Notes: generated by a model not told the origin, from the sequence alone. Shown: positions 39,748 through 55,921, numbered from the stretch's first letter. The stretch: DNA of 64,000 bases from an uncultured Chloroflexia bacterium (GCA_963713975.1 OY970218.1:224001-288000), one strand, 5' to 3'. Program-made: numbers and translations.

Positions 39748-42039
39748 GTGGGTACTGCGTCAGCGACTCCCGCAGCTACGGCGCCAACCGGCACGGTGGT
39801 TCACTCGCCGCTCAGGCGAGAGGGACCGGCGAAGCTGACCGGCGCCGCCCGCTTCACGGACGACATGGTCGTTTCCGGGGCGTGGTACGGCGTGACCGTG
39901 CGCTCCACGGAGCCCCACGCCAGGCTGCTGGGCATCGACCTCGATCCGGGCTTCGACTGGTCGGCGGTCGTGGTGGTCACGGCCGCGGACATCCCCGGCG
40001 ACAACGTGGTGACCCTGCTCGTCGACGACCAGCCCGCCCTCGTCGACGGTGAGATCCGGCACGTGGCGGAGCCCGTGGTCCTGGTCGCCGCCCCGGACCC
40101 GATCCTGGCCCGGGCTGCCCGCGACGCGGTCCACCTTCGCACCGAGCCCCTGCTCGCGGTCCTGGATCCATTGGCGGCAACCGAGTTCTGCAAGGTGTTC
40201 GAGATCGCCAGGGGAGACCTCGACGCCGGGCTCGCGAGTGCCGATCTCGTCCTGGAGGGCACGTACAGGACCGGCTACCAGGAACAGCTCTACATCGAGC
40301 CGCAGGCGATGATCGCGATCCCCCGCCCCGACGGCGGCCTGACCATCCACGGCTCGATGCAGTGCCCGTACTACGTGCACAAGGCGGTCGTGCGGGCGCT
40401 CGGCCTCGATCGCGATCGGGTCGCCATCGTGCAGGAGGAGACGGGAGGCGGCTTCGGCGGCAAGGAGGAGTACCCGTCCATCCTGGCGATCCATGCCGCC
40501 CTGCTCGCCCGCAAGGCGGGGCGCCCCGTGCGCATGGTGTATGAGCGGCACGAGGACCTCGCCGCGACCACCAAGCGACATCCGTCGATCATCCGCCACC
40601 GGACCGGCGTGACCCGTGACGGCCGGCTGGTGGCCCAGGACATCGAGATCGTCCTCGACGCGGGCGCCTACGCAACCGTGTCACCGGTCGTCCTGTCCCG
40701 CGGCGGCATCCACTGCGCGGGACCGTATGCCTGCCCCAACACACGGATCCGCGCCCGCGCGGCCGTGACCAACACGCCGCCCAACGGCGCCTTCCGGGGG
40801 TTCGGCGCGCCACAGGCCGCGTTCGCCGTCGAGACGCACCTGGACCGCCTCGCGGCCGCAGCGGGCATCTCGCCGCTCGAGATCCGGCGGCGCAATGCCT
40901 ACCGGCTCGGTGACGCCACGGCCACGGGCCAGGTCCTGCGCGAGAGCGTGGGGGCACTGGAGACGCTCGAGGCGGCGGCGGAGGCCTCCGGGTTCGAACG
41001 CGTCCGACGCGACCACGATGCGCGGCGCGAGGCGCGGCGCGAGGCGCGGTCCCGGCGAGGTGACGGGAACGCCGGGGCGCGCCTGGACGATCGGTCGGCC
41101 TCGGGGATCGGGATCGCGCTTGGCTGGCATGGCGCCGGGTTCACCGGCTCCGGGGAGGCGAGGCTCGCGAGCACCGCCTCGGTCGAGGTCGACGGCGGCG
41201 GGCAGATCCGGGCCTTCTCCGCGAACACGGAGATGGGCCAGGGATCGCGAACGGTGCTCGCCCAGGTGGTTGCCGAGGCGCTGGGCGTGGACCCCGACGA
41301 GGTCGACATCGCCCCCCAGGACACCGCGCTCGTCGCGGACAGCGGCCCGACCGTGGCGTCACGTACGACGATGGTGGTCGGCGCGTTGCTGGCGACCGCA
41401 TCCACGCACCTGCGTTCAGACGTGGAGGCCGTGACCGGCCGTCCGTTCGCGGCATCCTACCGCTCGTTCGCCCGTGAGCACGGTCCCCTGCGCGCCACGG
41501 AGCGGTTCCACGGCTTCCCGGGGATCGAGTGGGACGACGAGGCCTACCGGGGTGACGCCTACCCTGCCTACAGTTGGGCGTGCGCGGTGGCGGCCGTGGA
41601 CGTGGACCTCGACACGGGCGAGGTGCGGGTCCGGTCGGTCGTCCAGGCCGCCGACGCCGGCCGTATCGTCAACCGGGTCCTGGCCGAGGGCCAGGTCGAG
41701 GGCGGCACGCTGCAGGCCGTGGGCTACGCCACGCTCGAGGAGCTGCAGGCTGCGGACGGCCGCTACCGGAATGACCGGCTCTCGACCTACCTGATCCCGA
41801 CCGCGCTCGACGCGCCCCGGATCGAGACCCTCTTCGTGGGACAGCCGTTCGGTGCCGTCCCGCACGGGGCCAAGGGCCTGGGCGAGCTGCCGATGGACGT
41901 GCCCGCCCCCGCGGTGATCGCGGCGATCCACGATGCGACCGGGGCATGGATCCCGGACCTGCCGGCGACACCCGAGAAGATCCTCGCCGCGCTCTTGGCA
42001 CTGGATATCGAGGCGGGAGCGGAGGAGGCGGCCCGATGA
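39748..42039 (+). CDS. Xanthine dehydrogenase-family molybdopterin-binding subunit (start uncertain)
   Basis: GGGFGGKE, FRGFGAPQ, EMGQG, TVASR, GQVEGG and KGLGE motifs. Confidence 0.93.
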   Translation: MGTASATPAATAPTGTVVHSPLRREGPAKLTGAARFTDDMVVSGAWYGVTVRSTEPHARLLGIDLDPGFDWSAVVVVTAADIPGDNVVTLLVDDQPALVDGEIRHVAEPVVLVAAPDPILARAARDAVHLRTEPLLAVLDPLAATEFCKVFEIARGDLDAGLASADLVLEGTYRTGYQEQLYIEPQAMIAIPRPDGGLTIHGSMQCPYYVHKAVVRALGLDRDRVAIVQEETGGGFGGKEEYPSILAIHAALLARKAGRPVRMVYERHEDLAATTKRHPSIIRHRTGVTRDGRLVAQDIEIVLDAGAYATVSPVVLSRGGIHCAGPYACPNTRIRARAAVTNTPPNGAFRGFGAPQAAFAVETHLDRLAAAAGISPLEIRRRNAYRLGDATATGQVLRESVGALETLEAAAEASGFERVRRDHDARREARREARSRRGDGNAGARLDDRSASGIGIALGWHGAGFTGSGEARLASTASVEVDGGGQIRAFSANTEMGQGSRTVLAQVVAEALGVDPDEVDIAPQDTALVADSGPTVASRTTMVVGALLATASTHLRSDVEAVTGRPFAASYRSFAREHGPLRATERFHGFPGIEWDDEAYRGDAYPAYSWACAVAAVDVDLDTGEVRVRSVVQAADAGRIVNRVLAEGQVEGGTLQAVGYATLEELQAADGRYRNDRLSTYLIPTALDAPRIETLFVGQPFGAVPHGAKGLGELPMDVPAPAVIAAIHDATGAWIPDLPATPEKILAALLALDIEAGAEEAAR

Positions 42040-43505
42040 TCGAGTCGTCGCCCCTCGCCGCCCCTCCGATCCGGTTCCGGGTCAACGGCCGCGCGGTCGA
42101 GATCACGGACGAGCCAGGGGGCCGGCGCCTGCTCGACGTCCTGCGACTCGACCTGGGCCTTACGGGGGCGAAGGAGGGATGCGGCGAGGGCGAGTGCGGC
42201 GCCTGCTCCGTGCTGCTCGACGGCGCCGTCGTCAACAGCTGCCTGCTGCCGGTGGGCCAGGCCGACGGTCACGAGGTCGTCACCGTGGAGGGGCTGGCCG
42301 ACGGCGACCGCCTGTCGCCCCTCCAGCAGTCGTTCCTCGAGACGGGTGGGACGCAGTGCGGGATGTGCACCCCGGGGTTGCTCGTGGCCGCCCATGCGCT
42401 CCTCGAATTGGGACGACCCGCCGGCGAGCCCGACGTCCGCGAGGCGATCGCGGGCAACCTCTGCCGCTGCACTGGCTACACCAAGGTGGTCGAGGCGATC
42501 GAGGCGGCGGGGGCGGTCCACCGGCCGGCAAGGGTCGCGGGCGTCCAGGACGCACCGGTCGCGGGCGAGCTGCCGGCATCGCCGGCCGTTCCCGCAACGG
42601 TGCGACGCCACCACGGGTCCATCCGGTCCGATCCGCGCCTGGTCCGCCCCACCTCCCTGCCCGATGCGGTGGCGCGGCTCACCGCCGATCCGGCGCTCCG
42701 CCCGTTCGCCGGTGGGACGGACCTGATGGTCGAGCTGGCCCACGGATCGGCATCGCCGGGACGCCCGCTGCTGGACCTGTGGGAGCTCGACGAGCTGCGC
42801 GGGATCGAGGTCATCCACGATGAGCTGGCCCTGGGCGCATTGACCACCTGGACGGAGCTCCTCGACTCCACCGTCGCGCGCCACGCGCTGCCGGTGCTCG
42901 GCGAGGCGGCCGCGACGGTCGGTGCCGTCCAGGTCCGGAACCGGGGCACCATCGGCGGCAACTGCGTCACCGCCTCCCCCGCGGGCGATCTCCTGCCGGT
43001 GCTGCTTGCCACGGACGCGAGCCTTGAGGTGGCGGGGCCAGGCGGGACCCGGACGATCCGGGCGGATGCCTTCTGGACGGGCTACCGCACGACCGCCCTC
43101 GCCCCCGGGGAGCTGCTGGTGGCCGTGCGGGTCCCGCTGGTCCCCGGCCGAAGGGTGCGCTACCGGAAGGTCGGCACGCGTCGCGCGCTGGCGATCGCCA
43201 AGGTATCGATCGCCCTCGCCTGGCAGGACGGGGCGACGGCGGCAGGAACCGGCGGCACCGGCCGCGGACGCTGGCGGGGCGTCCGGGTCGCTCTGGGTTC
43301 AGTCGCGCCCACGCCCATTCGCGTGCTCCGGACCGAGGCGGTGCTGGAAGGGCGGCTGCCGGATCTCGCGATCGCGAACGAGGCCGCCGCCACGGTCCGG
43401 GCCGAGATCACGCCGATCGACGACATCCGCTCGACCGCCGACTACCGCCGCGAGGTCACGGGCCGGATCCTGCGCCGCATCGTGCTCGACGGCGCCCAGG
43501 GCTGA
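42036..43505 (+). CDS. Fused [2Fe-2S] and FAD-binding subunits of an Xdh-family enzyme
   Basis: GCGEGECGAC, QCGMCTPG, NLCRCTGY, then AGGTDL, RNRGTIGGN and DDIRSTADYR. Confidence 0.92.
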   Translation: MIESSPLAAPPIRFRVNGRAVEITDEPGGRRLLDVLRLDLGLTGAKEGCGEGECGACSVLLDGAVVNSCLLPVGQADGHEVVTVEGLADGDRLSPLQQSFLETGGTQCGMCTPGLLVAAHALLELGRPAGEPDVREAIAGNLCRCTGYTKVVEAIEAAGAVHRPARVAGVQDAPVAGELPASPAVPATVRRHHGSIRSDPRLVRPTSLPDAVARLTADPALRPFAGGTDLMVELAHGSASPGRPLLDLWELDELRGIEVIHDELALGALTTWTELLDSTVARHALPVLGEAAATVGAVQVRNRGTIGGNCVTASPAGDLLPVLLATDASLEVAGPGGTRTIRADAFWTGYRTTALAPGELLVAVRVPLVPGRRVRYRKVGTRRALAIAKVSIALAWQDGATAAGTGGTGRGRWRGVRVALGSVAPTPIRVLRTEAVLEGRLPDLAIANEAAATVRAEITPIDDIRSTADYRREVTGRILRRIVLDGAQG

Positions 43506-43542
43506 CCGGCCGGCAACGCGACCGCGAGCCGGCGGACATGGT

Positions 43543-44049
43543 TCAGATCGCGGGCGCGTCCAGCCCCAGCGTCGCCGCCAGCTCCTGTACCGCTGCCCGC
43601 TCCGCATCGTTGACCAGGACGCCGCCGCTGCCGAGGAACCCCTGGTCCTCCATGCCCGCCTGCGCCACCGCCACCGCGATCCCGAGCAGCCACGACCTGT
43701 ACGCCGAGGTCTCATCGGGGGTAGCGCCGGCCTCTACCGCCGCCATGGCCGATCGCACCGTCGCGACCGCCCTGTCGCGCGCATCGGGGGCCGTCACGAT
43801 CCTGGCGTAGTCGGGGAACGCGCCACCGGACGCCGCGTGGTCCTGGAGGGTCACGATGATCGACGAGAGCAGCGGATGGGCGACCTGGCCGCGGGCGCTG
43901 TCGAGCACGTAGGCGGCCATCGCGAAGCCCTCGCTGGCCGTCTCCTCCTTGCGACCAGGGCTCGCCGTCGAGATCAGCACGGCCGCCGCCTCCAGGCCCT
44001 GAAGGATCAGCCGCCGGTCATCGGGTTCGAAGTCGCCGAGCAGGGTCAT
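43543..44049 (-). CDS. Hypothetical helical protein (GFLG.GG..V.DAE motif, TerB-like?)
   Basis: GGAGG RBS; C-terminal YRSWLL.IA.AVAQAG...GFLGSGGVLVNDAERAA. Confidence 0.75.
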   Translation of the reverse strand: MTLLGDFEPDDRRLILQGLEAAAVLISTASPGRKEETASEGFAMAAYVLDSARGQVAHPLLSSIIVTLQDHAASGGAFPDYARIVTAPDARDRAVATVRSAMAAVEAGATPDETSAYRSWLLGIAVAVAQAGMEDQGFLGSGGVLVNDAERAAVQELAATLGLDAPAI

Positions 44050-44149
44050 GTCGCATCCTCCGTGCACCGGAATGGTTGACGACGGTGCACGATGTCGACC
44101 TTACCGCCATTCGACCCCGCGAGGCGTGGAAATGTCCGTGGTGAGCCGA

Positions 44150-45298
44150 TCAGGCCGTCGATGGGGACCCGGGCGCCCACAGGATCGCGGCGGGCCGACA
44201 GCGGGTGAGGCACAGGCCACAGCGCTCGCATCGCTCCTGGTCCAGCTCGGCCTTGCCGTTCACGACGTGGATGGCGTCGTAGACGCACGAGCCCTCGCAC
44301 AGCGCGCAGCCGTTGCACAGGTCGAGATCCACCATCGGCGGGCCGGGAACCTGGGCGGCAACGGGCTCGCGCAGGGCCATGCCCCGCACGTCGTCGAGAC
44401 CGGCGTATCCGTGGCCGGCGAGCCAGGCGGCCGCCTCTCCCGCGATCTTCCCGAACACGCCGCGACCGCGGAGGATTGCCGCGGTGCACACCTGCACGGC
44501 CGACGCGCCCGCCATCGCCATCTCGATCACGTCCGTGCCGCGGCTGATCCCGCCACAGCCGATGACGGGCAGGTCCACGGCGCGGGCCACATCGAACACG
44601 GAGCGCACGGCAAGGGGCTTGAGGGCCGGACCGGAGAGCCAGCCAGAGCCGTCGCCGCCACCCAGGCGCGGCCGGCCGCTCTCGATGTCGACGGCCAGGC
44701 AGGGGCCAAACGAGTTGATGGCGACGATCGCGTCCGCACCGGCGCGTGCCGCCTGCTCGGCAGCCCGTGACATCTGGCGTCCGAGCGGGCTGAGCTTGAC
44801 CCACACGGGCACGTCCACGGCGTCCTTGGCCGCCCGGATCGCGTCGACCATCGGGCCCGCGTCCTCGCCGATGTAGTGCGTCGAGAGCTCCAGGGCATCC
44901 GCGAACGGCCGGACGCGGGGCGCGAGCCACGCGATGTCCGCGGCGGAATAGCCCAGGCTCACGATCAGCGGCAGGTCCGGCGTCCTCGCCTGCGGCAGCT
45001 CGTACTCCAGCCACTGCTCCGGCGGGAGCTCGGACCACAGCTCGGCGTTGAGGAACCCATGAGCGATCTCGGCCATGTTAGGCGTGGGGACGACGGCCGC
45101 GGAGCGCGAGATGGTCTTGCTGACCAGGCCCCCGGCGCCACCCGCGGCGCAGGCCAGCATGGCGGCCCCGTCACGCACCGGCGGCCCCGCCGCCGTGAGG
45201 ACCGGGTTGCGGAACCGGATGCCACAGACCTCGACGGAGGCGTCGACGGGCGGTGCCGTCGCGGCGGCAGCCGAGGCGGGCGTTGCGCGCCGGGTCAC
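44150..45298 (-). CDS. Dihydroorotate/dihydropyrimidine dehydrogenase FMN subunit (PreA-like) with 2x[4Fe-4S]
   Basis: FRNPVLTAAGP, VSKTI, VKLSP, AINS, WLSGPALKP, GCGGI; CNGCALCEGSC and CERCGLCLTRC. Confidence 0.88.
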   Translation of the reverse strand: MTRRATPASAAAATAPPVDASVEVCGIRFRNPVLTAAGPPVRDGAAMLACAAGGAGGLVSKTISRSAAVVPTPNMAEIAHGFLNAELWSELPPEQWLEYELPQARTPDLPLIVSLGYSAADIAWLAPRVRPFADALELSTHYIGEDAGPMVDAIRAAKDAVDVPVWVKLSPLGRQMSRAAEQAARAGADAIVAINSFGPCLAVDIESGRPRLGGGDGSGWLSGPALKPLAVRSVFDVARAVDLPVIGCGGISRGTDVIEMAMAGASAVQVCTAAILRGRGVFGKIAGEAAAWLAGHGYAGLDDVRGMALREPVAAQVPGPPMVDLDLCNGCALCEGSCVYDAIHVVNGKAELDQERCERCGLCLTRCRPAAILWAPGSPSTA

Positions 45299-46671
45299 CG
45301 AAGCGGCGCCGTGCGCGGATCGAACGGGTGCTCGCCGATCGTGGCGAGGCGGCCCCACAAGCGTGTCGCCTGGGCACGAGCGGCGTCGAGGAGCCAGTCC
45401 TCGCCTACGAACCGGAGGCGGTGGCCAAGGACGGCGACCTCGCCTGCAACGACCACGTCGCGCACGTTGCGCGCCGAGAGGCCGAACACCCAGTGGCCGG
45501 GGAAGGTGTCCGCATCGGCCGGCGTGGGGACCGCGTGATCCAGGACGACGAGGTCCGCCGGCGCGCCCGCCTCGATCCGTCCGAGCAGGGGCTCGCCGAA
45601 GGCACGGCCCGCGACCCGTGCCGACTCCGCCAGGCGCGCCAGCACCCAGCGCGGATCGGGCGCCACCCCCTCCTCGCGCGCCGCGAGCCAGGCGGTCCGG
45701 GACTCCTCGAACATGTCCGCGCCGATGCCGTCCGTGCCGAGGGCGACCCGGGACCCCGGGAGTGCACGGGACCCCAGGAGCGCCGGTCGCCCCACGGCGT
45801 TGTTCATGTTGGACCGGATGTTGTGCACCACGGTCGCCCCGGCTTCGCGCACGGCCTCGGCCTCCCGCTCGTCGAGGTGCACCCCGTGGGCGAGCAGCGA
45901 CAGCTCGTCCAGGGCACCTGCCCGGGCGAGTCGTTCGATGACGGGGATCCCGAAGCGGGCCCGGCAGTCCGCCTGGTCCACGGCGTCCTCGGCAACGTGC
46001 ACGTGGAGGCCGGTCCCCGTGTGACCGGCGGCCTCGACGCAGGCAGCCAGGGTCGCGTCCGAGAGCGTGAACGAGGCGTGCGCCCCGACCATCGAGCGGG
46101 CGAGCGGCAGCGCCCCACCCGCCGCATGCTCGGCGAAGCGGCGGTTCTCGCGCAGGCCTGCCGCGGAGCACTCGGGTCCGTCCCGATCCGACACCTCGTA
46201 CGCGAGGATGCTGCGGATCCCGGTGGCCGCGAGCGACTCCGCGATGATGTCGAGCGAGCCGGCGATGGCATGCGGGGAGGCGTGATGGTCGACCACGGTG
46301 GTCGTGCCGGCCAGCAGGGCCTCCATGCCGCCGACGAGCGCGGAGGCGCGGATCGATCCCTCGTCCAGCCCGCGGTCCAGCCGCCACCAGACGCGTCGCA
46401 GGATGTCGACGAAGTCCCGGGGAGGCTCCAGGCCGTAGGGCATCCCCCGGGCCAGCGCCGCGTACAGGTGGGTGTGGGCGCAGACGTTGCCCGGGATCAC
46501 GACGCAGCCCCGTGCGTCGATGCGGTTCACGCCGGGATCATCGTCCCCGGACGCGTCCGCCACGGGGCTCACCTCGAGGACGCGGCCGTCGCCCACGAGG
46601 ACGTCGGCGACCTCGACCCGCACCGGGTCCAGGGACGTGACCACCGTGCCGCCGGTTACGAGCAGGTTCAT
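45295..46671 (-). CDS. ssnA: SsnA-like amidohydrolase
   Basis: CAHTHLYAALARG, WWRLDR.LD, DHHASP, YEVSDRDG, GAHASFTLSD, HVAED and SNMNNAVG motifs. Confidence 0.85.
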   Translation of the reverse strand: MNLLVTGGTVVTSLDPVRVEVADVLVGDGRVLEVSPVADASGDDDPGVNRIDARGCVVIPGNVCAHTHLYAALARGMPYGLEPPRDFVDILRRVWWRLDRGLDEGSIRASALVGGMEALLAGTTTVVDHHASPHAIAGSLDIIAESLAATGIRSILAYEVSDRDGPECSAAGLRENRRFAEHAAGGALPLARSMVGAHASFTLSDATLAACVEAAGHTGTGLHVHVAEDAVDQADCRARFGIPVIERLARAGALDELSLLAHGVHLDEREAEAVREAGATVVHNIRSNMNNAVGRPALLGSRALPGSRVALGTDGIGADMFEESRTAWLAAREEGVAPDPRWVLARLAESARVAGRAFGEPLLGRIEAGAPADLVVLDHAVPTPADADTFPGHWVFGLSARNVRDVVVAGEVAVLGHRLRFVGEDWLLDAARAQATRLWGRLATIGEHPFDPRTAPLR

Positions 46672-49307
46672 CGCCGGGTCCCTCCGCCGGCGGGCTCACG
46701 ATCGAGTCGTGGCAGCAGCGCGTGGGCTGCGGCCGAGTCGCGCATCGGGAGCCTGGTCCTGCGGACGCCGTCGAAGGCGTGCAGCGCCGAGGCTACGGCC
46801 GCCGCCGTCGGGACGAGCACCGCCTCGCCCATTCCCTTGGCGCCGCGGGGGCCCTCGGGCTGGGGGACCTCCACCAGGATCGTCTCGACCGGCGGCATCG
46901 TGGCGGCCGGGATGATCCCGAGCGACTTGAGGGTGTCGTTGACGGGCATGCCATCCTCCACGATGAACTCCTCCGTCAGGGCCATGCCGAGGCCCATGTG
47001 GACCCCGCCCTCGACCTGCCCCTTGAGCAGTGCGGGGTTGAGCGCGCGCCCCACGTCCTGGGCCGCGATCACGCGTTCGATCCGTCCGTGGTCATCCAGG
47101 ACCACCACCTGGGTCGCCCAGCCGTAGGCGAAGTGGGTGACCGGCTCGTCGACATCGGGCCCGAGCGGTGTGGTCCAGTCGACGACGAACTCGCCCGGGA
47201 ACTCCCTGCCGGCGAGATCCTCCATGAGCCCATCGCCGACGGCCGCGGCAAGCACGGCGCAGGCATCGAGGACGGCCCGGCCGCCCAGCATCGTGGCGCG
47301 CGACGCCGTGGTCTCCCCGGTGTCGAGCTCGTGGCCCGTGTCGACGACGACCCGGATCCGCTCCGGTGCGATGCCCAGCTCCTCGGCGGCGAGCTGGCGG
47401 AACACGGTGTGGCACCCCTGGCCCATCTCGGTCCAGGAGTGGAACAGCGTCACGGTCCCGTCGGCCTCCGGCCGCAGGACGGCCCGTCCACGCTCGATGA
47501 GGCCGTTGCCGACGCCCACGTTCTTGGCGCCGCAGGCGATCCCCGCGCACCTCGCCGCCCGGTAGGCATCGCGCACGGCAAGCAGCGTGGCCCGGATCCC
47601 GACGCCGGGCCCCAGCCGCTGGCCCGTCCCGAACCGGTCGCCCACGTCGAGCGCGTTTCGCCAGCGGATCTCCCAGCCGTCGATGCCCGCCTGCTCGGCC
47701 AGCATGTCCATCACGCCCTCGAGCGCGAAAGCAGCCTGGTTGGCCCCAAAGCCCCGCATCGCGCCCGACGGCGGGTTGTTGGTGTAGACGGCTCGCGCCT
47801 CGACGTCCACGTTGGGGACGCGATACGGCCCGCAGGCGTGGCCGGCCGCCCGCTCCAGCACCTTGCCGCCCACGCTGGCATACGCCCCGTTGTCCCCGAC
47901 GATGCGCGCCCGGATCGCGACGAGCCGGCCGTCGGCATCGCAGCCCGCCGTGTAGTCCAGCCACATCGGGTGGCGCTTGACGTGGAACCGGAGGCTCTCG
48001 ACGCGGCTCAGCCGCAGGAGGACCGGCCGGCCGGTACTGACGGCGAGGAGCGCGGCCTGCCCCTGGACGCTCAGATCCTCCTTGCCGCCGAAGGCTCCGC
48101 CCGTCGACACCTGGGTGACCATGACCTCGGCCGGCTCGAGGGCGAGGAACGACGCGACCTGGCGCCGGTCCTCCCAGGCACCCTGGCCCTCCGAGTAGAC
48201 GTGGACGCGCGGCAGGGTGACCCGCACGCCATCCGGTCCGACGGCCCCGCGCGGGACCGCGAGGCTCGCCTCAGGCTCCAGGAACGCATGCTCGATCGCC
48301 TGCGTGCGGAAGCTGGCGCTGGCCACGTGGGTGGCCGAGGCGAGGGCCGCCACCGCGTCGCCACGCCGGATGGCGGAGCTCGAGAGCACGTTGCCGCCCT
48401 CGTGGACGGCCGGGGCTCCCTCCTCGAGGGCCTTGAACGGATCGGTCACGGGCGGCAGCGGTTCCAGCGCCACCTCGATCAGCGCCGCGGCCCGGATCGC
48501 GATCGCGCGCGTCTCCGCGGCCACGGCCGCGAGGATGTCGCCCACGTAGCGTGTCGTCTCGCCCTCGGCCACCAGCAGCGGCCAGTCGGGGACGATGAGC
48601 CCCTGCTCCCGCCGGCCCGGGACGTCCGCAGCGGTCACGACGGCGACAACACCGGGCAGCGCGGCTGCGCGGGTGGCGTCGATGCGGTGCACGACCGCCC
48701 GCGGCGCACCGGCGAAGCGGAGCGCGCCGTGGAGCATGCCGGGCGCCACGAGGTCCGCGACGAACGGCTTCTCCCCCAGCGCCAGGGCATGGCCCTCGTG
48801 GCGAGCTCCGAGACCACGGGTCGCGCCCGGATCCCTGGCCAGCAGCGCCCCACCGCGCCGCGTCCGGGCCGCCAGCTCGATCGCGTCGACGATGGCCACA
48901 TACCCCGTGCAGCGGCACAGGTTCCCGGCCAGGGCGTGCGCGATCACCTCGCGGGCGGGTTCGGGGTTGCGCCGCAGCAGGGCCTCGGCCTTCATCACCA
49001 CGCCCGGCGAGCAGAAGCCGCACTGCGACGCCCCGGTCGCCACGAACGCGTCCGCCCACCCGTCCCGGACATGGGCCGACAGGCCCTCGAGCGTCTCCAC
49101 GGCACGGCCCCGCACCCGGTCCACCGGCTGGGCACAGGACACGACCGCGTGACCGTCCACGATCACGGTGCACGCCCCACAGGAGCCCTCTGGCGAGCAG
49201 CCGTCCTTCATCGACCGGAGGCCGCACGTATCCCGCAGGACGTCCAGCAGCGATGCCCCGGGCGCCGCATCCACAGCGACGGCCCGGCCGTTGAGCGTGA
49301 AGTCCAT
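46668..49307 (-). CDS. Selenium-dependent xanthine dehydrogenase-type enzyme ([2Fe-2S] fused to Mo domain)
   Basis: KDGCSPEGSCGAC, QCGFCSPG, EHAFLEPE, GGAFGGKEDL, H.KRHP, MRGFG and KGMGE; 879 aa. Confidence 0.88.
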   Translation of the reverse strand: MDFTLNGRAVAVDAAPGASLLDVLRDTCGLRSMKDGCSPEGSCGACTVIVDGHAVVSCAQPVDRVRGRAVETLEGLSAHVRDGWADAFVATGASQCGFCSPGVVMKAEALLRRNPEPAREVIAHALAGNLCRCTGYVAIVDAIELAARTRRGGALLARDPGATRGLGARHEGHALALGEKPFVADLVAPGMLHGALRFAGAPRAVVHRIDATRAAALPGVVAVVTAADVPGRREQGLIVPDWPLLVAEGETTRYVGDILAAVAAETRAIAIRAAALIEVALEPLPPVTDPFKALEEGAPAVHEGGNVLSSSAIRRGDAVAALASATHVASASFRTQAIEHAFLEPEASLAVPRGAVGPDGVRVTLPRVHVYSEGQGAWEDRRQVASFLALEPAEVMVTQVSTGGAFGGKEDLSVQGQAALLAVSTGRPVLLRLSRVESLRFHVKRHPMWLDYTAGCDADGRLVAIRARIVGDNGAYASVGGKVLERAAGHACGPYRVPNVDVEARAVYTNNPPSGAMRGFGANQAAFALEGVMDMLAEQAGIDGWEIRWRNALDVGDRFGTGQRLGPGVGIRATLLAVRDAYRAARCAGIACGAKNVGVGNGLIERGRAVLRPEADGTVTLFHSWTEMGQGCHTVFRQLAAEELGIAPERIRVVVDTGHELDTGETTASRATMLGGRAVLDACAVLAAAVGDGLMEDLAGREFPGEFVVDWTTPLGPDVDEPVTHFAYGWATQVVVLDDHGRIERVIAAQDVGRALNPALLKGQVEGGVHMGLGMALTEEFIVEDGMPVNDTLKSLGIIPAATMPPVETILVEVPQPEGPRGAKGMGEAVLVPTAAAVASALHAFDGVRRTRLPMRDSAAAHALLPRLDREPAGGGTRR

Positions 49308-49504
49308 GGGACCCCTCGCGGCCGGTCCCCGCTGGACCGTCTGGCCCTAGCCGGGAGCGCTCCGATGTCGAATCGTAGGGACGACTCGAGGGACCCCGCG
49401 CGTGCCAAGTGTCCCGACTCCGCACGAGGCCTGTCCCGAGCCGTCGGGCGACCGACCCACCGTCACGGCTGAAGCCGGGCCGTCGCCAACAGCAGGAGGT
49501 CGTG

Positions 49505-51001
49505 ATGCGCCGACTGGGACTTGAACGGGACGTCGTGGACCCGGTCGTCCGGGACCGTGCTGCCGATCGCTGCCGGTCCCTGGGCGTGGTCCTGCCGACC
49601 TTCGCCCAGCTGGCCGATCCCGACCTCGTCCCCAGCGCCGTGGCCGAGCGGCTTGCCGCCGTCGATCCTGATGCGCCCGATCCGCTCAACCTGTACCGCG
49701 TCCACTGGTTCAATGACGGCACGCGGGCCGCCCGGACACACGTCCCCGACCACCTGGTCCTGCCCGAGGCGCTGACCGGCGTCGTCTCGCCGATCGTGAT
49801 CGCGCTGGGCGACCGGTTCCCGATGATCCGGTCGCACAAGGTCATCGCGGCCTACGGCTGCCTCGCGCCGCGGATCGTGACCGGCCAGTTCGATCCCGCG
49901 ACGGAGCGGGCGGTCTGGCCGTCCACCGGCAACTACTGCCGGGGCGGCGCGGCGATCTCCCGGATCATGGGCTGCCGCGGCGTGGCGGTCCTCCCCGAGG
50001 GAATGAGCCGCGAGCGGTTCGAGTGGCTCGAGCGGTGGGTTGCCGACCCGTCGGACATCATCCGGACGCCGGGCACGGAGAGCAACGTCAAGGAGATCTA
50101 CGACCGCTGCGCGGAGCTCGACCGCGAGCCGGACACGGTGATCTTCAACCAGTTCAGCGAGTTCGGGAACCACGTCGCCCACTACGCCCTCACTGGCCGT
50201 GCCCTGGCGCACGTGTTCGAGGCGGTCCGGGCCCGGCAGCCGAGCGTCCGCGCCGCCGCGTTCGTGTCGGCGACCGGGTCCGCCGGGACCATCGGGGCCG
50301 GCGACTACCTCAAGGAACGGCTCGGCTCGCGGACGGTGGCCGTCGAGGCACTGGAGTGCCCGACCATGCTCGCCAACGGCTTCGGCGAGCACAACATCCA
50401 GGGGATCGGCGACAAGCACATCCCGCTCATCCACAACGTGATGGCGACCGACCTCGTGGCGGCCGTCTCTGACCGGGCCACCGATGCGCTCCTAGTGCTG
50501 TTCAACACGGCCGTCGGTCGCGAGTACCTCGTGCGGCGACGCGGCGTGCCCGCCGAGATCGTGAGCGCCCTCGGGTCGCTCGGCGTGTCCTCGATCTGCA
50601 ACGTGCTGGCCGCGATCAAGGTGGCCCGCCACCAGCACCTCGGACCCGACGACGTGATCCTGACGGTCGCCACGGACGGCGCGGAGATGTACGCGACCGA
50701 GCTGGAGCGGATCGCCGCCCGCGACTTCCCGGGCGGGTTCGACGAGGTGGCGGCCGGGGAGACCTTCGGGGCCTACCTCAACGCCGTCGCGGAGGACCAC
50801 GTCCTGGAGGCGACCCGCGCCGATCGCGAGCGGATCTTCAACCTCGGCTACTACACCTGGGTCGAACAGCAGGGGGTGCCGATCGACGAGTTCGAGGCCC
50901 GCCGCCAACCGGACTTCTGGACGACGATGCGCGGGATCGTCGACCGCTGGGACCAACTGATCGACGAGTTCAATGCGCACGTCGCCGGTGGACCGGCCTA
51001 G
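49505..51001 (+). CDS. Fold-type II PLP-dependent enzyme (cysteine synthase/threonine dehydratase superfamily)
   Basis: SHKV (PLP Lys), [17 protein letters not shown] and IQGIGDKH motifs; AGGAGG RBS. Confidence 0.85.
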
Positions 51002-51017
51002 TCGAGGAGGTGGCCGC

Positions 51018-52481
51018 ATGAGCGCTCCATCGCCGCGCCGGAGAGAGGTCCCACCGCCACCCGCGGTCGAGACGGGGCTCGCGTGTGCCGGGTGTGGCGC
51101 GCTGGGACCCGCCCACCACCCGTTCACGCCACGCTGCCCGAACCGCCGCGCCGGCGACGACATCGACCACGTGATGGCGCGCGGCATCGACCTCAACCGC
51201 CTCGACCCGCCCGCCGACCCGGACCCGAATCCGTTCGTCCGCTACCGGGCCCTGTTCCACGCCTACCACGTTGCCCGGGCGGCGGGCTGGGGTGACAGCC
51301 GCTACGTGGGCCTGGTGCGCGAGCTCGACGATGCCGTGGCACGCGTGGACGGCAAGGGGTTCCGGGTCACGCCCCTGGTGCGGGCGCCGGGGATCGCGCA
51401 TGCCGCCGGCCTCGGCGCGCGGGGGACGGTCTGGGTCAAGGATGAGACGGGCAACGTCGCGGGATCCCACAAGGCGCGCCACCTGTTCGGGGTCATGCTG
51501 GAGCTGCGCGTGGCCGAGGCGATCGCGGGCAGGGAGCCCATTGAGCCCGCGGCACCGCTGGCCATCGCGAGCTGCGGCAACGCCGCCCTGGCCGCCACCT
51601 TGGTCGCCCGGGCGGCCCAGCGCGAGCTCCAGGTATTCGTCCCCGCCAGTGCCGACGTCGCCGTGGTCGACAGGCTGCGCGATCTCGGTGCAGCTGTCGT
51701 CGTCTGCCCCCGCCGTCCTGGCGAGACGGGCGATCCGTCGTACCACCGGATGCAGGAGGCCCTGGCCGAGGGCGCCATCCCGTTCACCTGCCAGGGCCCC
51801 GACAACGGCCTCGCGATCGAGGGCGGGGCGACCGTCGCCTGGGAGATCGTGGACGCCATGCGCGCCGCCGGCGCGTCCCTCGACCGCATCGTCGTCCAGG
51901 TTGGCGGCGGGGCACTCGCATCGGGGATCATGCTCGGGTTCGACGACGCTGCGGTCATCGGCGCGCTCGGGGTCGTCCCGCGCCTCGACACGGTCCAGGC
52001 GCGCGGTGGCTGGCCGCTCGTCCGCGCCTACCGGCAGGTGCTCGCCGACCTCGGCACCGCCGCCGGGGTGCCGCTCCGCCCGGACGTCGTGCACGACGCC
52101 ATCCGTCACGCGGCCAACCACCGGTCGCGCTACATGTGGCCCTGGGAGACGGAGCCCGTGAGCGTCGCCCACGGCATCCTGGACGACGAGACCTACGACT
52201 GGCTCGCGGTCGTGCGGGCGATGCTGGCCACCGGGGGTCGCGCGATCGTCGTCGACGAGGCCGACCTCGTCGAGGCCAACGAGATCGCCCGGGGGGCCAC
52301 CGGCATCGACGCGGACGAGACCGGCACCGCGGGGGTCGCGGGCCTGCTGGCCCTTGCCCGCGGCGGGTTTGTACGACCCGGCGAATCGGTCGCCGTGGTC
52401 CTCAGCGGCGCCCGCCGTCCCGCCCCATCGGCAGCAGCGTCCTCCACTCAGCCCAGGTCATCGCAACGGAGCACGCCATGA
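51018..52481 (+). CDS. Threonine synthase-like PLP enzyme with N-terminal zinc ribbon
   Basis: CAGC..RCP, WVKDETGNVAGSHKARH, ASCGNAA and QVGGGAL motifs. Confidence 0.85.
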   Translation: MSAPSPRRREVPPPPAVETGLACAGCGALGPAHHPFTPRCPNRRAGDDIDHVMARGIDLNRLDPPADPDPNPFVRYRALFHAYHVARAAGWGDSRYVGLVRELDDAVARVDGKGFRVTPLVRAPGIAHAAGLGARGTVWVKDETGNVAGSHKARHLFGVMLELRVAEAIAGREPIEPAAPLAIASCGNAALAATLVARAAQRELQVFVPASADVAVVDRLRDLGAAVVVCPRRPGETGDPSYHRMQEALAEGAIPFTCQGPDNGLAIEGGATVAWEIVDAMRAAGASLDRIVVQVGGGALASGIMLGFDDAAVIGALGVVPRLDTVQARGGWPLVRAYRQVLADLGTAAGVPLRPDVVHDAIRHAANHRSRYMWPWETEPVSVAHGILDDETYDWLAVVRAMLATGGRAIVVDEADLVEANEIARGATGIDADETGTAGVAGLLALARGGFVRPGESVAVVLSGARRPAPSAAASSTQPRSSQRSTP

Positions 52482-53431
52482 GAAGCTTCCTCGGCCGCGA
52501 CATCCTCTCGCTCAAGGACTTCAGCCGCGACGAGTACTTCCGGGTCTTCCAGGTCGCCGACGACCTCCGTCCCTTCGCCCGGGACCGCCGGAACACCGAC
52601 CTGCTCAAGGGCAAGACCCTGCTGACGGCCTTCTACCAGCCGAGCACCCGCACGCGCCTCTCCCACGAGGCCGCGATGCACCGGCTGGGCGGCGCCGTGC
52701 TGGGGTTCAGCGACGCCAAGATGACCCGCGCCGGGGACTTCTACCAGGAGTCGATCAAGGACACGTTCCACATGCTGGAGTACTACGCGGACGTGATCGC
52801 GATCCGCCACTTCCGGCAGGGAGCACCGCACGAGGCGGCCAAGTGGGCGTCCGTCCCGGTCATCAACTGCGGCGACGGATGGGGCGAGCACCCGACCCAG
52901 GTCCTCACCGACCTGTACACGATCCTCCACGAGAAGGGCACCCTCGATGGGCTGACCTACCTCCTGGTCGGCGACATGCGGATGCGGACGATGCACTCGA
53001 TCCTGTACGCGCTCTCGCAGTTCGACGCCCGGGCCATCGTGGTCGGCCCTCCGGACATGAGCCTCCTGCCGGAGTTCAAGGAGGAGATCGACGCGCTGAA
53101 CGTGGACTACGTGGAGGCGGGCGACGTCCGGGACGTGATCGGCGAGGCGGACATCATCTACATGGAGCCGGTGGTCCAGGCGGACTACACGGCGTCGCGC
53201 GTGGAGCGCAGCGGCGATACGGGCCTCACGCCACCGGAGTACGTGGTCACGCGCCAGCTGCTGGCCGACAAGGCACGGCGCTCGTCGATCATCCTCCACT
53301 CGCTGCCGCGGATGGACGAGCTGCCCGAGGACGTGGACGCGACCCGCCACCAGCGGTACTGGTCGGAGGCCTTCAACGGCGTCGCGCTCAAGATGGGCCT
53401 GCTCGCGCTGATCCTCGGCGCCGCCGAGTAG
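52478..53431 (+). CDS. Aspartate carbamoyltransferase-like enzyme (divergent substrate site)
   Basis: FYQPSTRT, RH, GDG.GEHPTQ and HSLPR retained; canonical KGE and RxQxER absent. Confidence 0.85.
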   Translation: MRSFLGRDILSLKDFSRDEYFRVFQVADDLRPFARDRRNTDLLKGKTLLTAFYQPSTRTRLSHEAAMHRLGGAVLGFSDAKMTRAGDFYQESIKDTFHMLEYYADVIAIRHFRQGAPHEAAKWASVPVINCGDGWGEHPTQVLTDLYTILHEKGTLDGLTYLLVGDMRMRTMHSILYALSQFDARAIVVGPPDMSLLPEFKEEIDALNVDYVEAGDVRDVIGEADIIYMEPVVQADYTASRVERSGDTGLTPPEYVVTRQLLADKARRSSIILHSLPRMDELPEDVDATRHQRYWSEAFNGVALKMGLLALILGAAE

Positions 53432-53440
53432 GGGCGCGTC

Positions 53441-54418
53441 ATGCAGACCGACCTCCGTGGCCGCGACCTCATCAGCCTCCAGGAGTGGACGAAGGAGGAG
53501 ATCGACACCGTCCTGGAGGTGGCGCTCCAGCTCAAGCGGGAGCGTGCGCTGGGCATCGCCCACCCGCTGCTGCGGGACCGGGTCCTCGCGATGCTGTTCT
53601 TCTTCTCGTCCACCAGGACCCGGGCCTCGTTCGAGGCAGGCATGGCCCAGCTCGGCGGCCACGCCCAGTTCATCGAGAGCCGTACCACCCAGATCGCCCA
53701 TGGCGACACGGCCACCGAGATCGGCGAGATCCTGGGCCGCTACAACGACGGCATCGCGATCCGCAACGTGGACTGGGGCATCGGCAACGGCTACATCCGT
53801 GACGTAGCGGCGGCCAGCCGGGTCCCCGTCCTCAACATGCAGTGCGATCTCTACCACCCGCACCAGTCCCTCGCCGACCTGCTCACGATCATCGAGAAGA
53901 AGGGCGACCCGAAGGGGCGCACGATCGACATCAGCTGGGCGTACGCGGCCAGCTACCAGAAGCCGATCAGCGTCCCGGTGGACCTCTCCCTGCTGACGAC
54001 GCGCTACGGGATGCACGTCCGGCTTGTCCACCCGCCGGAGTTCCGGCTGCCGCAGGACCTGGTGGACCAGGCCGCCGAGAACGCGCGCCGGAGCGGAGGG
54101 TCGTTCCAGCTGATGGACGACTTCGAGACCGGCATGCGTGGCGCGGACATCGTCTACGCCAAGAGCTGGGGGGCGCTCCTTTCGGCGACGTCCGAGGAGG
54201 AGGGCGCCGCAACGGCCAGGCGGTACACGGACTGGATCACAGACGAGCGGCGGATCGCGCTGGCCGCCGAGGACGCGATCTACATGCACCCGCTCCCCGC
54301 GGACCGCAACGTGGAGGTGGCCGACGCCGTGATCGACGGTCCGCACTCGGTCGTCTACGACGAGGCCGAGAACCGGCTGCACGTGCAGAAGGCGGTGATG
54401 GCGCTCACGATGCGCTAG
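53441..54418 (+). CDS. Knotted YgeW/N-acetylornithine-type carbamoyltransferase
   Basis: SSTRT, TQIAHGDT, NMQCD..HP.Q, SWAY..SY.KP.SVP, VYAKSW and MHPLPAD match the YgeW-like pattern. Confidence 0.82.
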   Translation: MQTDLRGRDLISLQEWTKEEIDTVLEVALQLKRERALGIAHPLLRDRVLAMLFFFSSTRTRASFEAGMAQLGGHAQFIESRTTQIAHGDTATEIGEILGRYNDGIAIRNVDWGIGNGYIRDVAAASRVPVLNMQCDLYHPHQSLADLLTIIEKKGDPKGRTIDISWAYAASYQKPISVPVDLSLLTTRYGMHVRLVHPPEFRLPQDLVDQAAENARRSGGSFQLMDDFETGMRGADIVYAKSWGALLSATSEEEGAATARRYTDWITDERRIALAAEDAIYMHPLPADRNVEVADAVIDGPHSVVYDEAENRLHVQKAVMALTMR

Positions 54419-54550: not shown

Positions 54551-55921
54551 ATGATCCACGACCACGCGCACGACAACGACGAGCTCACTCCGGCCTACGC
54601 CGGCCGGCTGCAGAACGCCCGGATGCCCAAGAACTCGCTGCCGGACGGGGAGCTATCCGCGACGTCCGTGTACCGGTACATCCACGATGAGCTGATGCTC
54701 GACGGCAGCTCCCGGCTCAACATGGCGACGTTCGTCACGACCTGGATGGAGCCCGAGGCCGACAGGCTGATGGCCGAGACGTTCGACAAGAACATGATCG
54801 ACAAGGACGAGTACCCGCAGACCGCCGAGATCGAGCGGCGCTGCGTCAACATCGTCGCCAATCTGTTCCACGCTCCCATGGATGCCGAGGCGGTTGGCGT
54901 GTCCACGATAGGCTCGAGCGAGGCGGTCATGCTGGCCGGCCTGGCCATGAAGTGGCGCTGGCGCCAGCGGCGCGAGGCAGCCGGACTGCCCACGGATCGG
55001 CCCAACATGGTGATGGGCTCCAACGTCCAAGTCGTGTGGGAGAAGTTCTGCCGGTACTGGGACGTGGAGCCGCGCTACGTTCCGGTGACCTCGAGCCGTT
55101 TCGTCGTGGACCCGGACGATGTGATGGCCCGCGTCGACGAGCGCACCATCGGTGTCATCCCCATCCTCGGGACGACATACACGGGTGAGTTCGAGCCCGT
55201 CAAGGAGATCCACGACCGGGTCGTTGCCTACAACGCGGCCCACGGACTCGACATCCCCATCCATGTCGACGCCGCGAGCGGCGGGTTCGTCGCGCCGTTC
55301 CTGCATCCAGACCTGGAGTGGGACTTCCGGCTCCCCCAAGTGAAGTCGATCAACGTGTCCGGGCACAAGTACGGCCTTGTCTATCCGGGACTGGGGTTCG
55401 CAATCTGGCGCTCGAAGGAGGAACTGCCCGAGGACCTCGTGTTCCACGTGAACTACCTCGGCGGCGATATGCCCACCTTCACGCTGAACTTCTCGCGACC
55501 GGGCAACCAGATCGTGGGGCAGTACTACAACTTCCTGCGCCTCGGTCGCGAGGGCTACACGCGGATCATGGAGTCGCTCCGCGATGTCGCGCTGTACCTG
55601 TCGGGCGAGATCGCCGGGATGGACCAGTTCGAGGTCATCAGCGACGGCAGCGCCATCCCGGTCCTGTCGTTCAGGACCAAGGGCGACCAGCCGTTCACGG
55701 TGTTCCATGTCTCCGACCAGCTGCGAATGGGCGGCTGGCAGGTGCCCGCGTACACGATGCCGGCGGACGCCACCGATGTCGCGGTCCTGCGGATCGTCGT
55801 CCGCGAGGGCTTCAGCATGGACCTCGCCGAGGGGTTGGTCGCGGCCCTGCACAAGGCCGTGGACCATCTCGTGCAGTACCCGCCGGCCCACCCGCCGGAG
55901 TCCGGCCACTTCGCGCACTGA
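54551..55921 (+). CDS. gadB: Glutamate decarboxylase
   Basis: NMATFVTTWME, NMIDKDEYPQT, HVDAASGGF, SGHKYG and TFTLNFSRP motifs. Confidence 0.95.
   Translation: MIHDHAHDNDELTPAYAGRLQNARMPKNSLPDGELSATSVYRYIHDELMLDGSSRLNMATFVTTWMEPEADRLMAETFDKNMIDKDEYPQTAEIERRCVNIVANLFHAPMDAEAVGVSTIGSSEAVMLAGLAMKWRWRQRREAAGLPTDRPNMVMGSNVQVVWEKFCRYWDVEPRYVPVTSSRFVVDPDDVMARVDERTIGVIPILGTTYTGEFEPVKEIHDRVVAYNAAHGLDIPIHVDAASGGFVAPFLHPDLEWDFRLPQVKSINVSGHKYGLVYPGLGFAIWRSKEELPEDLVFHVNYLGGDMPTFTLNFSRPGNQIVGQYYNFLRLGREGYTRIMESLRDVALYLSGEIAGMDQFEVISDGSAIPVLSFRTKGDQPFTVFHVSDQLRMGGWQVPAYTMPADATDVAVLRIVVREGFSMDLAEGLVAALHKAVDHLVQYPPAHPPESGHFAH

Follow-up and report, generated by a model that had tools for sequence, protein, structure and literature searches.

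A stretch of 64,000 nucleotides from an uncultured Chloroflexia bacterium (GCA_963713975.1 OY970218.1:224001-288000; hereafter the window) carries, between positions 39,748 and 54,418, a group of purine-related genes that raises a simple question. Is this a form of the reductive pathway of urate degradation in which two carbamoyltransferases and two pyridoxal phosphate (PLP) enzymes have taken over steps that other enzymes perform in E. coli? A sequence-only reading of the window had suggested so. In our analysis, gene content and conservation argue that the cluster is a real and conserved variant of the reductive urate pathway. We also lean towards the fuller reading, in which the cluster serves a variant reductive (2,8-dioxopurine, or 'yanthine') urate and purine pathway of environmental Chloroflexota and Actinomycetota, with a lower half that runs through the steps proposed below.

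Only in 2025 was the reductive urate pathway worked out, and descriptions so far place it in gut anaerobes and give it a single step that yields adenosine triphosphate (ATP). As laid out in the article texts, the E. coli route comprises XdhD/DOPDH, YgfK, SsnA, HyuA, YgeW (with YqeA for ATP), YgeY and YgeX (PMC12507026; 10.1101/2025.04.24.650524). The text of Li et al. (2025, PMC12507026) further describes that in C. difficile UacX (PF01180, a PydA homologue) replaces YgfK and the hydrolase UacY replaces YgeW plus YqeA, and it mentions an F420-type reductase in Chloroflexota. In the neighbourhood network of the same paper any gene with PF00185 is coloured as YgeW and any gene with PF00291 as YgeX, a colouring which would hide the variant seen here. 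Li et al. and Liu et al. disagree on which ureido group YgeW removes, and a commentary by Percudani lists the point as open. A full-text literature search returned no form with two carbamoyltransferases and no pair of PLP enzymes like the one described here (PLP1 and PLP2); the supplement of Li et al. and the extended data of Liu et al. lay outside this search and may show such clusters.

All genes named in the sequence-only reading are present, with minor boundary corrections: family scans found the two Xdh-type molybdenum (Mo) enzymes, SsnA, the PreA-like reductase and the divergent operon of PLP1, PLP2, an aspartate carbamoyltransferase (ATCase)-like enzyme (ATC-like) and a YgeW-like enzyme. 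Raw lists of open reading frames (ORFs) are crowded in this window of 67-74% G+C, and genes were chosen by the G+C content of codon positions together with the family scans. Three of the genes form what we predict to be a translationally coupled operon. The first encodes a fused iron-sulphur (Fe-S) and Mo hydroxylase, which scores above the cut-off of the 'selenium-dependent xanthine dehydrogenase' (Se-XDH) model TIGR03311 (905.7 bits, cut-off 830.45) and is the candidate for the reduction of urate to 2,8-dioxopurine. The start of ssnA overlaps the hydroxylase stop by 4 nt, and the GTG start of the PreA-like gene in turn overlaps the ssnA stop (GTGA). SsnA is 35.8% identical to E. coli SsnA over 447 aa and is the only such match in the genome. 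The PreA-like protein matches DHO_dh with 118 bits and has Fer4 motifs, while the PreA model itself gives 149 bits (cut-off 335). As a DHO_dh and Fer4 protein coupled to ssnA, it is of the kind expected of the dearomatising reductase, which is YgfK or UacX (PF01180) in the known systems. The suggestion that this protein stands in for YgfK was right; YgfK itself was not found (best genome-wide match 335 bits, cut-off 835). The substitution has already been described, however, as UacX of C. difficile (PF01180, PMC12507026). The upstream half of the cluster agrees with the published UacX form of the pathway.

The two-subunit XDH-family enzyme lies on the other strand. Its Mo subunit resembles PucD, with 495 bits against TIGR03196, below the cut-off of 784, and its start is ambiguous between an ATG at 39712 and a GTG at 39748. 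The subunit with the Fe-S and flavin adenine dinucleotide (FAD) domains has the ribosome-binding site (RBS) GGAGGAGG, and its ATG start overlaps the stop of the Mo subunit (ATGA).

The absence of YgfK, HyuA, YgeY, DpaL and carbamate kinase from the window, noted at the outset, can now be set against the whole genome, a single contig of 3.62 Mb rated 92% complete. Like YgfK, YgeY was not found in the genome-wide family search (M20 family, best 81.4 bits, cut-off 321.5), and neither was YgeX/DpaL, for which the best match in the genome to TIGR03528 reaches 32.1 bits (cut-off 532) at another locus and the E. coli YgeX sequence gives no tblastn match above 50 bits. The genome does encode SelD (349 bits), a single carbamate kinase (2198382-2199278, 375 bits, cut-off 358) and a dihydropyrimidinase (2359712-2361106, 576 bits, above its cut-off, with 41.6% identity to E. 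coli HyuA). The carbamate kinase gene directly follows an ArgI-like ornithine carbamoyltransferase (OTC) with 60% identity to E. coli ArgI, beside two alpha subunits of Rieske ring-hydroxylating oxygenases; an arginine deiminase was not seen among the six genes scanned in the 14-kb stretch around it (2191628-2199335, L062). The dihydropyrimidinase lies 2.1 Mb from the cluster together with an F420-dependent LLM oxidoreductase (TIGR03842), a CN-hydrolase and a class-III aminotransferase (2359712-2368163, L061). This neighbourhood resembles a reductive pyrimidine pathway in which an F420 enzyme stands in for PydA, and the same dihydropyrimidinase may also supply the HyuA step for urate. A second, SsnA-like amidohydrolase close to the window was considered as a stand-in for HyuA and is not favoured: the two amidohydrolases found 14-26 kb past the window end are generic and have no pathway neighbours.

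Does the divergent operon belong to urate degradation at all? It might instead serve pyrimidine or arginine metabolism or the biosynthesis of a ureido amino acid, and lie beside xdh and ssnA by chance. The public names of relatives would fit this, namely aspartate carbamoyltransferase for relatives of the ATC-like protein and cysteine synthase for PLP1 relatives, and the ATC-like protein marginally passes the aspartate carbamoyltransferase model TIGR00670 (244.4 vs 236.95), while staying below NF002032 (213.8 vs 263). However, the genome has its canonical PyrB at 2160452, next to a dihydroorotase, and two OTCs, the ArgI-like one by carbamate kinase and a second at 3.60 Mb; the two carbamoyltransferases of the operon are therefore extra paralogues. 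The ATC-like protein has moreover lost K84 and R229 of PyrB, and the distribution of the operon follows that of SsnA, as described next. We consider an operon unrelated to urate very improbable.

For the gene neighbourhoods we used a PLP1 profile, which found 596 relatives among 599 candidate stretches of species-representative genomes. We retained the best 80 loci, together with flanks of up to 10 kb, and annotated them by tblastn, using as queries the proteins of the window and those of the cluster in E. coli K-12; matches had to cover at least 40% of the query and to pass identity thresholds. Many of these loci are cut by contig ends. SsnA is found in 33 of the 80 loci and the Se-XDH type in 28. 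An ATC-like and/or a YgeW-like gene occurs in 16, of which 12 have both, three the ATC-like gene only (L073, L095, L105) and one the YgeW-like gene only (L075). SsnA lies within 10 kb at 15 of these 16 loci, and carbamate kinase is beside the ATC-like or YgeW-like genes at eight; in relatives it follows the YgeW-like gene. The block of PLP1, PLP2, ATC-like and YgeW-like genes next to Se-XDH and SsnA is also present in a genome of the same family, and the divergent arrangement is kept in seven genomes. With the block recurring and SsnA at 15 of 16 loci, the arrangement is not due to chance. Canonical YgeW and/or YgeY occurs in eight loci (seven with both), again with SsnA nearby at all eight, and the ATC/YgeW-like and YgeW/YgeY modules are not found together in any of the 80 loci.

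The phyletic pattern points in the same direction. We compared occurrence lists by eye in 151 Chloroflexota genomes, out of about 300 genomes in the whole study; the counts for SsnA, YgeW-like and YgeY include one genome flagged as unpublished (G145). SsnA is found in 38 of the 151 genomes. The YgeW-like protein is found in 36, all of which have SsnA, and in none of the 113 genomes lacking it. PLP1 occurs in 22 genomes (20 with SsnA), the ATC-like protein in eight (seven with SsnA) and YgeY, at E<=1e-50, in 37 (32 above the cut-off; 34 of the 37 with SsnA). YgeX, at E<=1e-30, is found in five genomes, none of them among the 38 with SsnA. Profiling of the operon thus shows it to track ssnA and xdh; together with the PyrB and OTC genes located elsewhere, and with no ygeY or dpaL found in the rest of the genome, this means that none of the findings named at the outset as refuting the initial proposal was made. 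A same-genus genome (G079, 97% complete) and a same-family genome (G124, 94%) gave no PLP1, SsnA, YgeW-like or ATC-like match with these queries, which makes the entire module accessory in this family. In the Actinomycetota sample the ATC-like protein is rare (3 of 151 genomes).

What could the two carbamoyltransferases do? In a maximum-likelihood tree of 40 carbamoyltransferase sequences, obtained by a quick search with SH-aLRT support only, 14 ATC-like proteins form one clade (support 99) beside E. coli PyrB and the PyrB of this genome. The clade retains the carbamoyl-phosphate motifs STRTR, the R105 equivalent and HPTQ, as well as the R167 equivalent. In a MAFFT alignment with E. coli PyrB, K83-K84 and R229 are substituted in all 14 members: GDFYQE is found where PyrB has GKKGE (K83-K84), MEPVVQ plus an insert of about 8 residues where PyrB has MTRVQK (R229, Q231), and HSLP where it has HPLP. 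HMMER alignments to the structures 1ML4 (P. abyssi) and 6YW9 (Arabidopsis ATCase) concur that K84 and R229 are not conserved. In E. coli ATCase with bound PALA we take R167 to contact the alpha-carboxylate, R229 and Q231 the beta-carboxylate, and K84 to come from the neighbouring chain. On this basis our reading is that the ATC-like enzyme would still handle carbamoyl phosphate and an N-alpha-carbamoyl amino acid without the second carboxylate of aspartate. Acidic residues adjoin both changed positions (the D in GDFYQ and the E in MEPVVQ), and they would fit a cationic side chain, as for example in 3-amino-2-ureidopropionate. We predict the ATC-like enzyme to be a second, pathway-specific carbamoyltransferase; no other candidate for the YgeY step is visible in this lineage.

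The YgeW-like protein is the best match of E. coli YgeW in the genome, with 34.6% identity. The same tree joins the YgeW-like proteins to true YgeW (support 99) and separates them from ArgI/ArgF; 12 short ones form a clade of their own and two actinobacterial ones lie nearer to YgeW. They share with YgeW the motif N-[LM]QCD..HPxQ, an insert after the R105 equivalent, SYxKP[IL]SVP and KSW, but the protein is 70 residues shorter and has HPLP instead of HCLP. Ornithine carbamoyltransferases are characterised by the motifs DxxxSMG and HCLP. The YgeW-like protein stays below the OTC model TIGR00658 (239, cut-off 281) and has AKSWG and HPLP where ArgI has DVWVSMG and HCLP. Given the phyletic and tree evidence, we regard its assignment to the YgeW family as well supported.

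The phyletic comparison also bears on YgeY. The sequence-only reading had the second carbamoyltransferase replace hydrolytic YgeY, and for this lineage that idea is supported. The SsnA-bearing Chloroflexota genomes without YgeY are this genome (G000), its family-mate G088, G037 (73% complete) and G112 (also without the YgeW-like protein). Of these, G000 and G088 are the two of good quality, and precisely they combine the presence of the ATC-like protein with the lack of YgeY. In ten further ATC-bearing genomes the YgeY search likewise stayed below the cut-off, with best scores of 99 and 97 bits. Outside one Chloroflexota group, all 12 ATC-bearing genomes tested, this one included, are without YgeY above the cut-off. 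As a general rule, a strict exclusivity of the two proteins is ruled out: in one Chloroflexota group both genes stand side by side. Six of the eight ATC-bearing Chloroflexota genomes also have YgeY, and in five of them the two genes are adjacent; four of these (G085, G043, G055, G067) carry a full block of YgeY, ATC-like, YgeW-like and carbamate kinase, and the short contig of a fifth (G012) holds only the ATC-like gene and YgeY. In the sixth genome (G006) the two genes are on separate contig ends. The ATC-like enzyme may therefore do something that YgeY does not. This coexistence is the main result that speaks against a simple swap.

Within a reductive urate cluster the ATC-like enzyme might instead act on another ureido intermediate or regio-isomer, with an unrecognised hydrolase removing the second ureido group and only one ATP gained. 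Candidate substrates would be the free ureido group of ureidomethylhydantoin or of 5-ureidodihydrouracil, or one of the two mono-ureido products. Besides the five genomes with adjacent genes, this would be in line with sister genomes of the same family (L154-L156) that have YgeY, YgeW-like and carbamate kinase without an ATC-like gene, with the CN-hydrolase (N-carbamoyl amidase type) at 2.363 Mb and with the weak M20 homologues of this genome (best 81 bits). However, in the 12 of 12 ATC/YgeW-like genomes without YgeY some replacement is needed, and apart from the ATC-like gene the cluster has gained none. Copies with and without YgeY also share the altered K84-region motif, which is GDFYQ in the five copies adjoining YgeY, or GDYYQ in one of them. 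We hold this alternative to be unlikely and keep to the reading of the ATC-like enzyme as the YgeY replacement in the lineage studied here. The distribution suggests a series from YgeY only, through YgeY and ATC-like together, to ATC-like only.

The last step of the pathway would fall to the PLP1-PLP2 pair. PLP1, which has N- and C-terminal extensions, scores 78 against the cysK model (cut-off 351), and in a profile of 15 sequences Lys112 (SHKV) is invariant and two loops, PSTGN and GSAGT, are seen. PLP2 scores 72 against the threonine synthase model NF006050 (cut-off 303) and has an invariant Lys152 (GSHKARH), the motifs ASCGNAA and VQVGGGAL and a strongly conserved GILDDETYDW block. Its N-terminal C-x2-C...C...H motif is near-invariant (C23, C26, C40, H51), with some Acidimicrobiia copies lacking it. 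AlphaFold2 models have a pLDDT of 89.4 for PLP1 and 88.6 for PLP2. In Foldseek searches the PLP1 model matches cysteine synthases, CBS and H2S-forming enzymes, and the PLP2 model matches threonine synthase (ThrC), threonine deaminases (TdcB, IlvA) and serine or aspartate racemases. Sequence and fold searches of the PDB gave no specific function for either protein and no diaminopropionate ammonia-lyase among the top matches listed, and the ESM Atlas has only generic 'PLP-dependent enzyme' clusters. A prediction of the PLP1-PLP2 complex (score 0.00, mark 0.32) bears neither for nor against binding. At least 120 close relatives of PLP1 exist, 72-100% identical among those listed, and are annotated as 'cysteine synthase' or 'PLP-dependent enzyme'.

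The gene context makes the pair the best candidate for the YgeX step. The two genes stand next to each other, PLP1 first, at 51 of the 80 loci, and the pair is present at 30 of the 33 loci that have SsnA. In seven of the eight loci with canonical YgeW/YgeY, which in E. coli make diaminopropionate, PLP1-PLP2 is the only PLP candidate, and YgeX was found in none of the five genomes combining the pair with canonical YgeW/YgeY (whole-genome family search, best 53 bits). A Rubrivivax metagenome-assembled genome (MAG; L122) illustrates this: Se-XDH, SsnA, PLP1, PLP2, YgeW (83%), YgeY (82%), YqeA (75%), YgfK and HyuA are present, and no YgeX was detected in the 17.5 kb covered. As for the chemistry, a lyase plus a racemase is one option, because the Percudani commentary takes the intermediates of the pathway to be D-configured, and beta-replacement to serine followed by dehydration is another. 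The idea that the PLP enzymes may replace DpaL thus fits the context, namely the conserved pair and the lack of YgeX in SsnA-bearing Chloroflexota (0/38) and in the five genomes just mentioned; one locus, however, has both the pair and a YgeX-like gene.

That locus (L081, 46% identity) is one of six among the 80 with a YgeX-like gene and the only one of them with Se-XDH, and the gene lies directly next to PLP1-PLP2. It belongs to several observations that weigh against assigning the pair to diaminopropionate. PLP1 is without PLP2 in 29 of the 80 loci and without both PLP2 and SsnA in 26, and in a family-level comparison of the 80 loci F420/LLM, CoA-transferase and ABC-transporter gene families recur around PLP1 where PLP2 is missing. 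With these foreign contexts, PLP1 is not confined to this pathway. In five other Chloroflexota SsnA clusters, the YgeW-like gene or SsnA has as its neighbour a CysK-like gene of ordinary length (about 350 aa), and the two that were scanned (L157, L163) score as cysteine synthase. The nearest structures of PLP1 are also those of beta-replacement enzymes. The pair could then, for example, eliminate urea from albizziin (beta-elimination), or divert the C3 unit to serine or cysteine by beta-replacement, with diaminopropionate being disposed of in another way. Against such roles stand the loci with canonical YgeW/YgeY described above and the resemblance of PLP2 to ammonia-lyases and racemases. We find them distinctly unlikely, and continue with diaminopropionate as the predicted substrate of the pair. 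One more Chloroflexota SsnA cluster carries a ThrC-type gene; fold-type-II PLP enzymes other than YgeX are thus a recurrent feature of SsnA clusters.

Some further observations on these genes may be useful to others. Nine loci with PLP1 but no PLP2 (L102, L111, L116, L120, L126, L131, L136, L140 and L143; PLP1 58-64% identical, mostly Proteobacteria MAGs) show a different context for the PLP1 family, composed of luciferase-like monooxygenase (LLM) genes, a gene with an F420-dependent NADP oxidoreductase domain, a fused radical-SAM/CofH-like gene, CoA-transferase subunits, an SDR gene and parts of ABC transporters. In the SsnA clusters of other Chloroflexota families, the CysK-like gene adjoins the YgeW-like gene (L157-L161) or lies near SsnA (L163, L164). 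A second amidohydrolase, distantly SsnA-like (25-30% identity), is encoded in L157-L161 as well.

How would the complete pathway run? The XdhAB-type enzyme, judging from its family, would oxidise hypoxanthine and xanthine to urate. The Se-XDH-type enzyme would then reduce urate to 2,8-dioxopurine, the UacX-like reductase would dearomatise it and SsnA would open the first ring; homology and the coupled three-gene operon point to this, in agreement with the published UacX variant. Opening of the second ring by the dihydropyrimidinase encoded at 2.36 Mb is the weakest step of the proposal. The remaining steps are suggested by gene context, phyletic pattern and active-site residues. The YgeW-like enzyme would phosphorolyse one ureido group of 2,3-diureidopropionate to carbamoyl phosphate, and the ATC-like enzyme, with its intact sites for carbamoyl phosphate and the alpha-carboxylate and its remodelled side-chain pocket, would remove the other in the same way, a step for which E. 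coli uses the hydrolase YgeY. Carbamate kinase, whose gene is at 2.198 Mb in this genome and within the operon in relatives, could then provide up to two ATP per urate. PLP1-PLP2 would take the place of YgeX and break 2,3-diaminopropionate down into pyruvate and ammonia. The most specific version of this scheme has both ureido groups phosphorolysed for two ATP per urate, a YgeW-type enzyme that cleaves the 3-ureido group first, an ATC-like enzyme acting on 3-amino-2-ureidopropionate and PLP1-PLP2 as a two-enzyme replacement of YgeX; we offer it tentatively, as a possibility that we would rather doubt than rely on.

Several points count against the pathway as a whole. Thermodynamically, the phosphorolysis of N-carbamoyl amino acids is an uphill reaction. 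Neither SsnA nor the YgeW-like protein reaches its curated cut-offs (414 vs 444 for NF005540 and 402 vs 455.5 for TIGR03314 in SsnA; 165.9 vs 500 for TIGR03316 and 178.6 vs 453 for NF005538 in the YgeW-like protein, which is below all NCBIfam cut-offs). The hydantoinase and carbamate kinase are encoded outside the cluster in this genome, and 18 of the 38 SsnA-bearing Chloroflexota genomes are without PLP1. In the genome-wide search YqeB reached 20.7 bits (cut-off 220) and YqeC gave no match, though the Mo enzyme passes the 'selenium-dependent XDH' model. The enzyme is either selenium-independent or differently matured. YqeB and YqeC are present in all urate-degrading gut strains examined, according to the article text of Liu et al. 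(10.1101/2025.04.24.650524).

Through this module the pathway is seen to be widespread also in metagenome assemblies of uncultured Chloroflexota, Actinomycetota, Acidobacteriota, Myxococcota and Proteobacteria, several of which carry soil, groundwater or bog as sample label. Its lower half appears to be rebuilt with a new ATCase-derived clade, annotated publicly as PyrB, a short sister clade of YgeW, and a conserved PLP pair, annotated as cysteine synthase. If our interpretation is true, the substrate-level ATP yield of purine fermentation would be doubled, and a systematic mis-annotation of thousands of metagenomic proteins could be corrected. The module would also provide a test case from nature for the disputed order in which the ureido groups are cleaved. 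A YgeW-type enzyme that cleaves the 3-ureido group first would resolve the point on which Li et al. and Liu et al. differ. It might furthermore offer alternative enzymes for engineered urate-degrading probiotics.

Table 1. Genes and intergenic region of the cluster and the adjoining decarboxylase gene, in window positions.
Feature	Position	Strand	Evidence
XDH-family molybdopterin subunit (XdhAB/PucD-like)	39712 or 39748-42039	+	Pfam MoCoBD_1/2, Ald_Xan_dh_C; TIGR03196
XDH small subunit, 2x[2Fe-2S] + FAD	42036-43505	+	Fer2, Fer2_2, FAD_binding_5, CO_deh_flav_C
Orphan 174-aa ORF	43543-44067	-	G+C at third codon positions (GC3) coding-like
PreA/UacX-like flavin mononucleotide (FMN) reductase, C-terminal 2x[4Fe-4S] domain	44150-45298	-	Codon-position G+C, DHO_dh, Fer4 motifs
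SsnA-type amidohydrolase	45295-46671	-	NF005540, TIGR03314
Fused [2Fe-2S]+Mo hydroxylase, 'selenium-dependent XDH' family	46668-49307	-	TIGR03311
Divergent intergenic region, 197 bp	49308-49504	.	Alignment of 7 orthologous regions
PLP1, 498 aa, CysK-like fold-type-II PLP enzyme	49505-51001	+	PALP domain
PLP2, 487 aa, ThrC/dehydratase/racemase-like fold-type-II PLP enzyme	51018-52481	+	PALP domain
ATCase-like carbamoyltransferase, distinct clade	52478-53431	+	TIGR00670, tree
Short (325 aa) YgeW-family carbamoyltransferase	53441-54418	+	E. coli YgeW match, tree, motifs
Glutamate decarboxylase	54551-55921	+	TIGR01788, 682 bits vs cut-off 380

The genes of the divergent operon are closely packed: PLP1 and PLP2 have the RBS AGGAGG and GAGGAGG, the ATC-like start overlaps the PLP2 stop (ATGA) and the YgeW-like gene begins after a gap of 9 nt. 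In the divergent intergenic region, blocks are kept in seven genomes, for example around GGACCGTCTGGCCCTA, GAATCGTAGG and CGTGCC..GTGTCCCGAC, and these may be shared promoter or operator elements. An Rfam search of 38.9-55 kb (E<=1) found no riboswitch in this region or in the long 5' region of the XDH genes; its sole match is a small RNA at chance level inside a coding region. A response regulator and a histidine kinase are encoded upstream of the XdhAB genes. Glutamate decarboxylase as a fifth gene of the operon was ruled out, given its gap of 132 nt, its own RBS and no counterpart in the 80 loci. It occupies the slot in which relatives carry carbamate kinase after the YgeW-like gene, and a second group-II decarboxylase is found at 11221-12768 (-). 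The 174-aa ORF is probably outside the module; it has no Pfam or NCBIfam match, and tblastn found no relatives in 20 loci of the phylum, the 80 loci or the later loci. An adenosine deaminase at the window edge (1-1116, +) and a class II (B12) ribonucleotide reductase (15045-18428, +) are also encoded here, and thus nucleotide-metabolism genes besides those of the cluster share the same 64 kb.

Like the E. coli pathway, the system described here combines a Mo hydroxylase with an SsnA-type protein and a dearomatising reductase, and it has a YgeW-family enzyme; carbamate kinase, a putative hydantoinase-type enzyme and SelD are encoded in the genome. It differs in that no YgfK, YgeY, YgeX, YqeB or YqeC was found in the genome, in the short YgeW sister clade, the extra ATCase-like enzyme and PLP1-PLP2, and in the HyuA-type and carbamate kinase genes being unlinked. 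With the UacX variant of C. difficile it shares an FMN and Fe-S reductase of the DHO_dh family, without an FAD domain, for YgfK, and a Mo enzyme without a separate YgfM subunit. There, however, the UacY hydrolase yields no ATP, whereas here the opposite trend is predicted, with two phosphorolytic enzymes. PLP1 and PLP2 are like YgeX/DpaL in being fold-type-II PLP enzymes at the end of the same type of cluster, but they fall outside that family, in CysK-like and ThrC-like branches, exceed it in length by 90-100 residues and come as a pair.

The ATC-like enzyme resembles PyrB (closest solved structure 1ML4 of P. abyssi, 236 bits) in fold, length, STRTR, R105, HPTQ and the R167 equivalent. In contrast to PyrB, K83-K84 has become F-Y or D-F-Y-Q, R229 has become P, the insert of about 8 residues and the change from HPLP to HSLP are seen, and a pyr context is absent. 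An analogy between urate degradation and the arginine deiminase pathway is drawn in the article text of Liu et al. (10.1101/2025.04.24.650524). The catabolic OTC and carbamate kinase of that pathway perform what we propose here, namely phosphorolysis of a ureido group to carbamoyl phosphate and then formation of ATP. The substrates are different, and in the cluster described here two successive ureido groups of one molecule would be used in this way.

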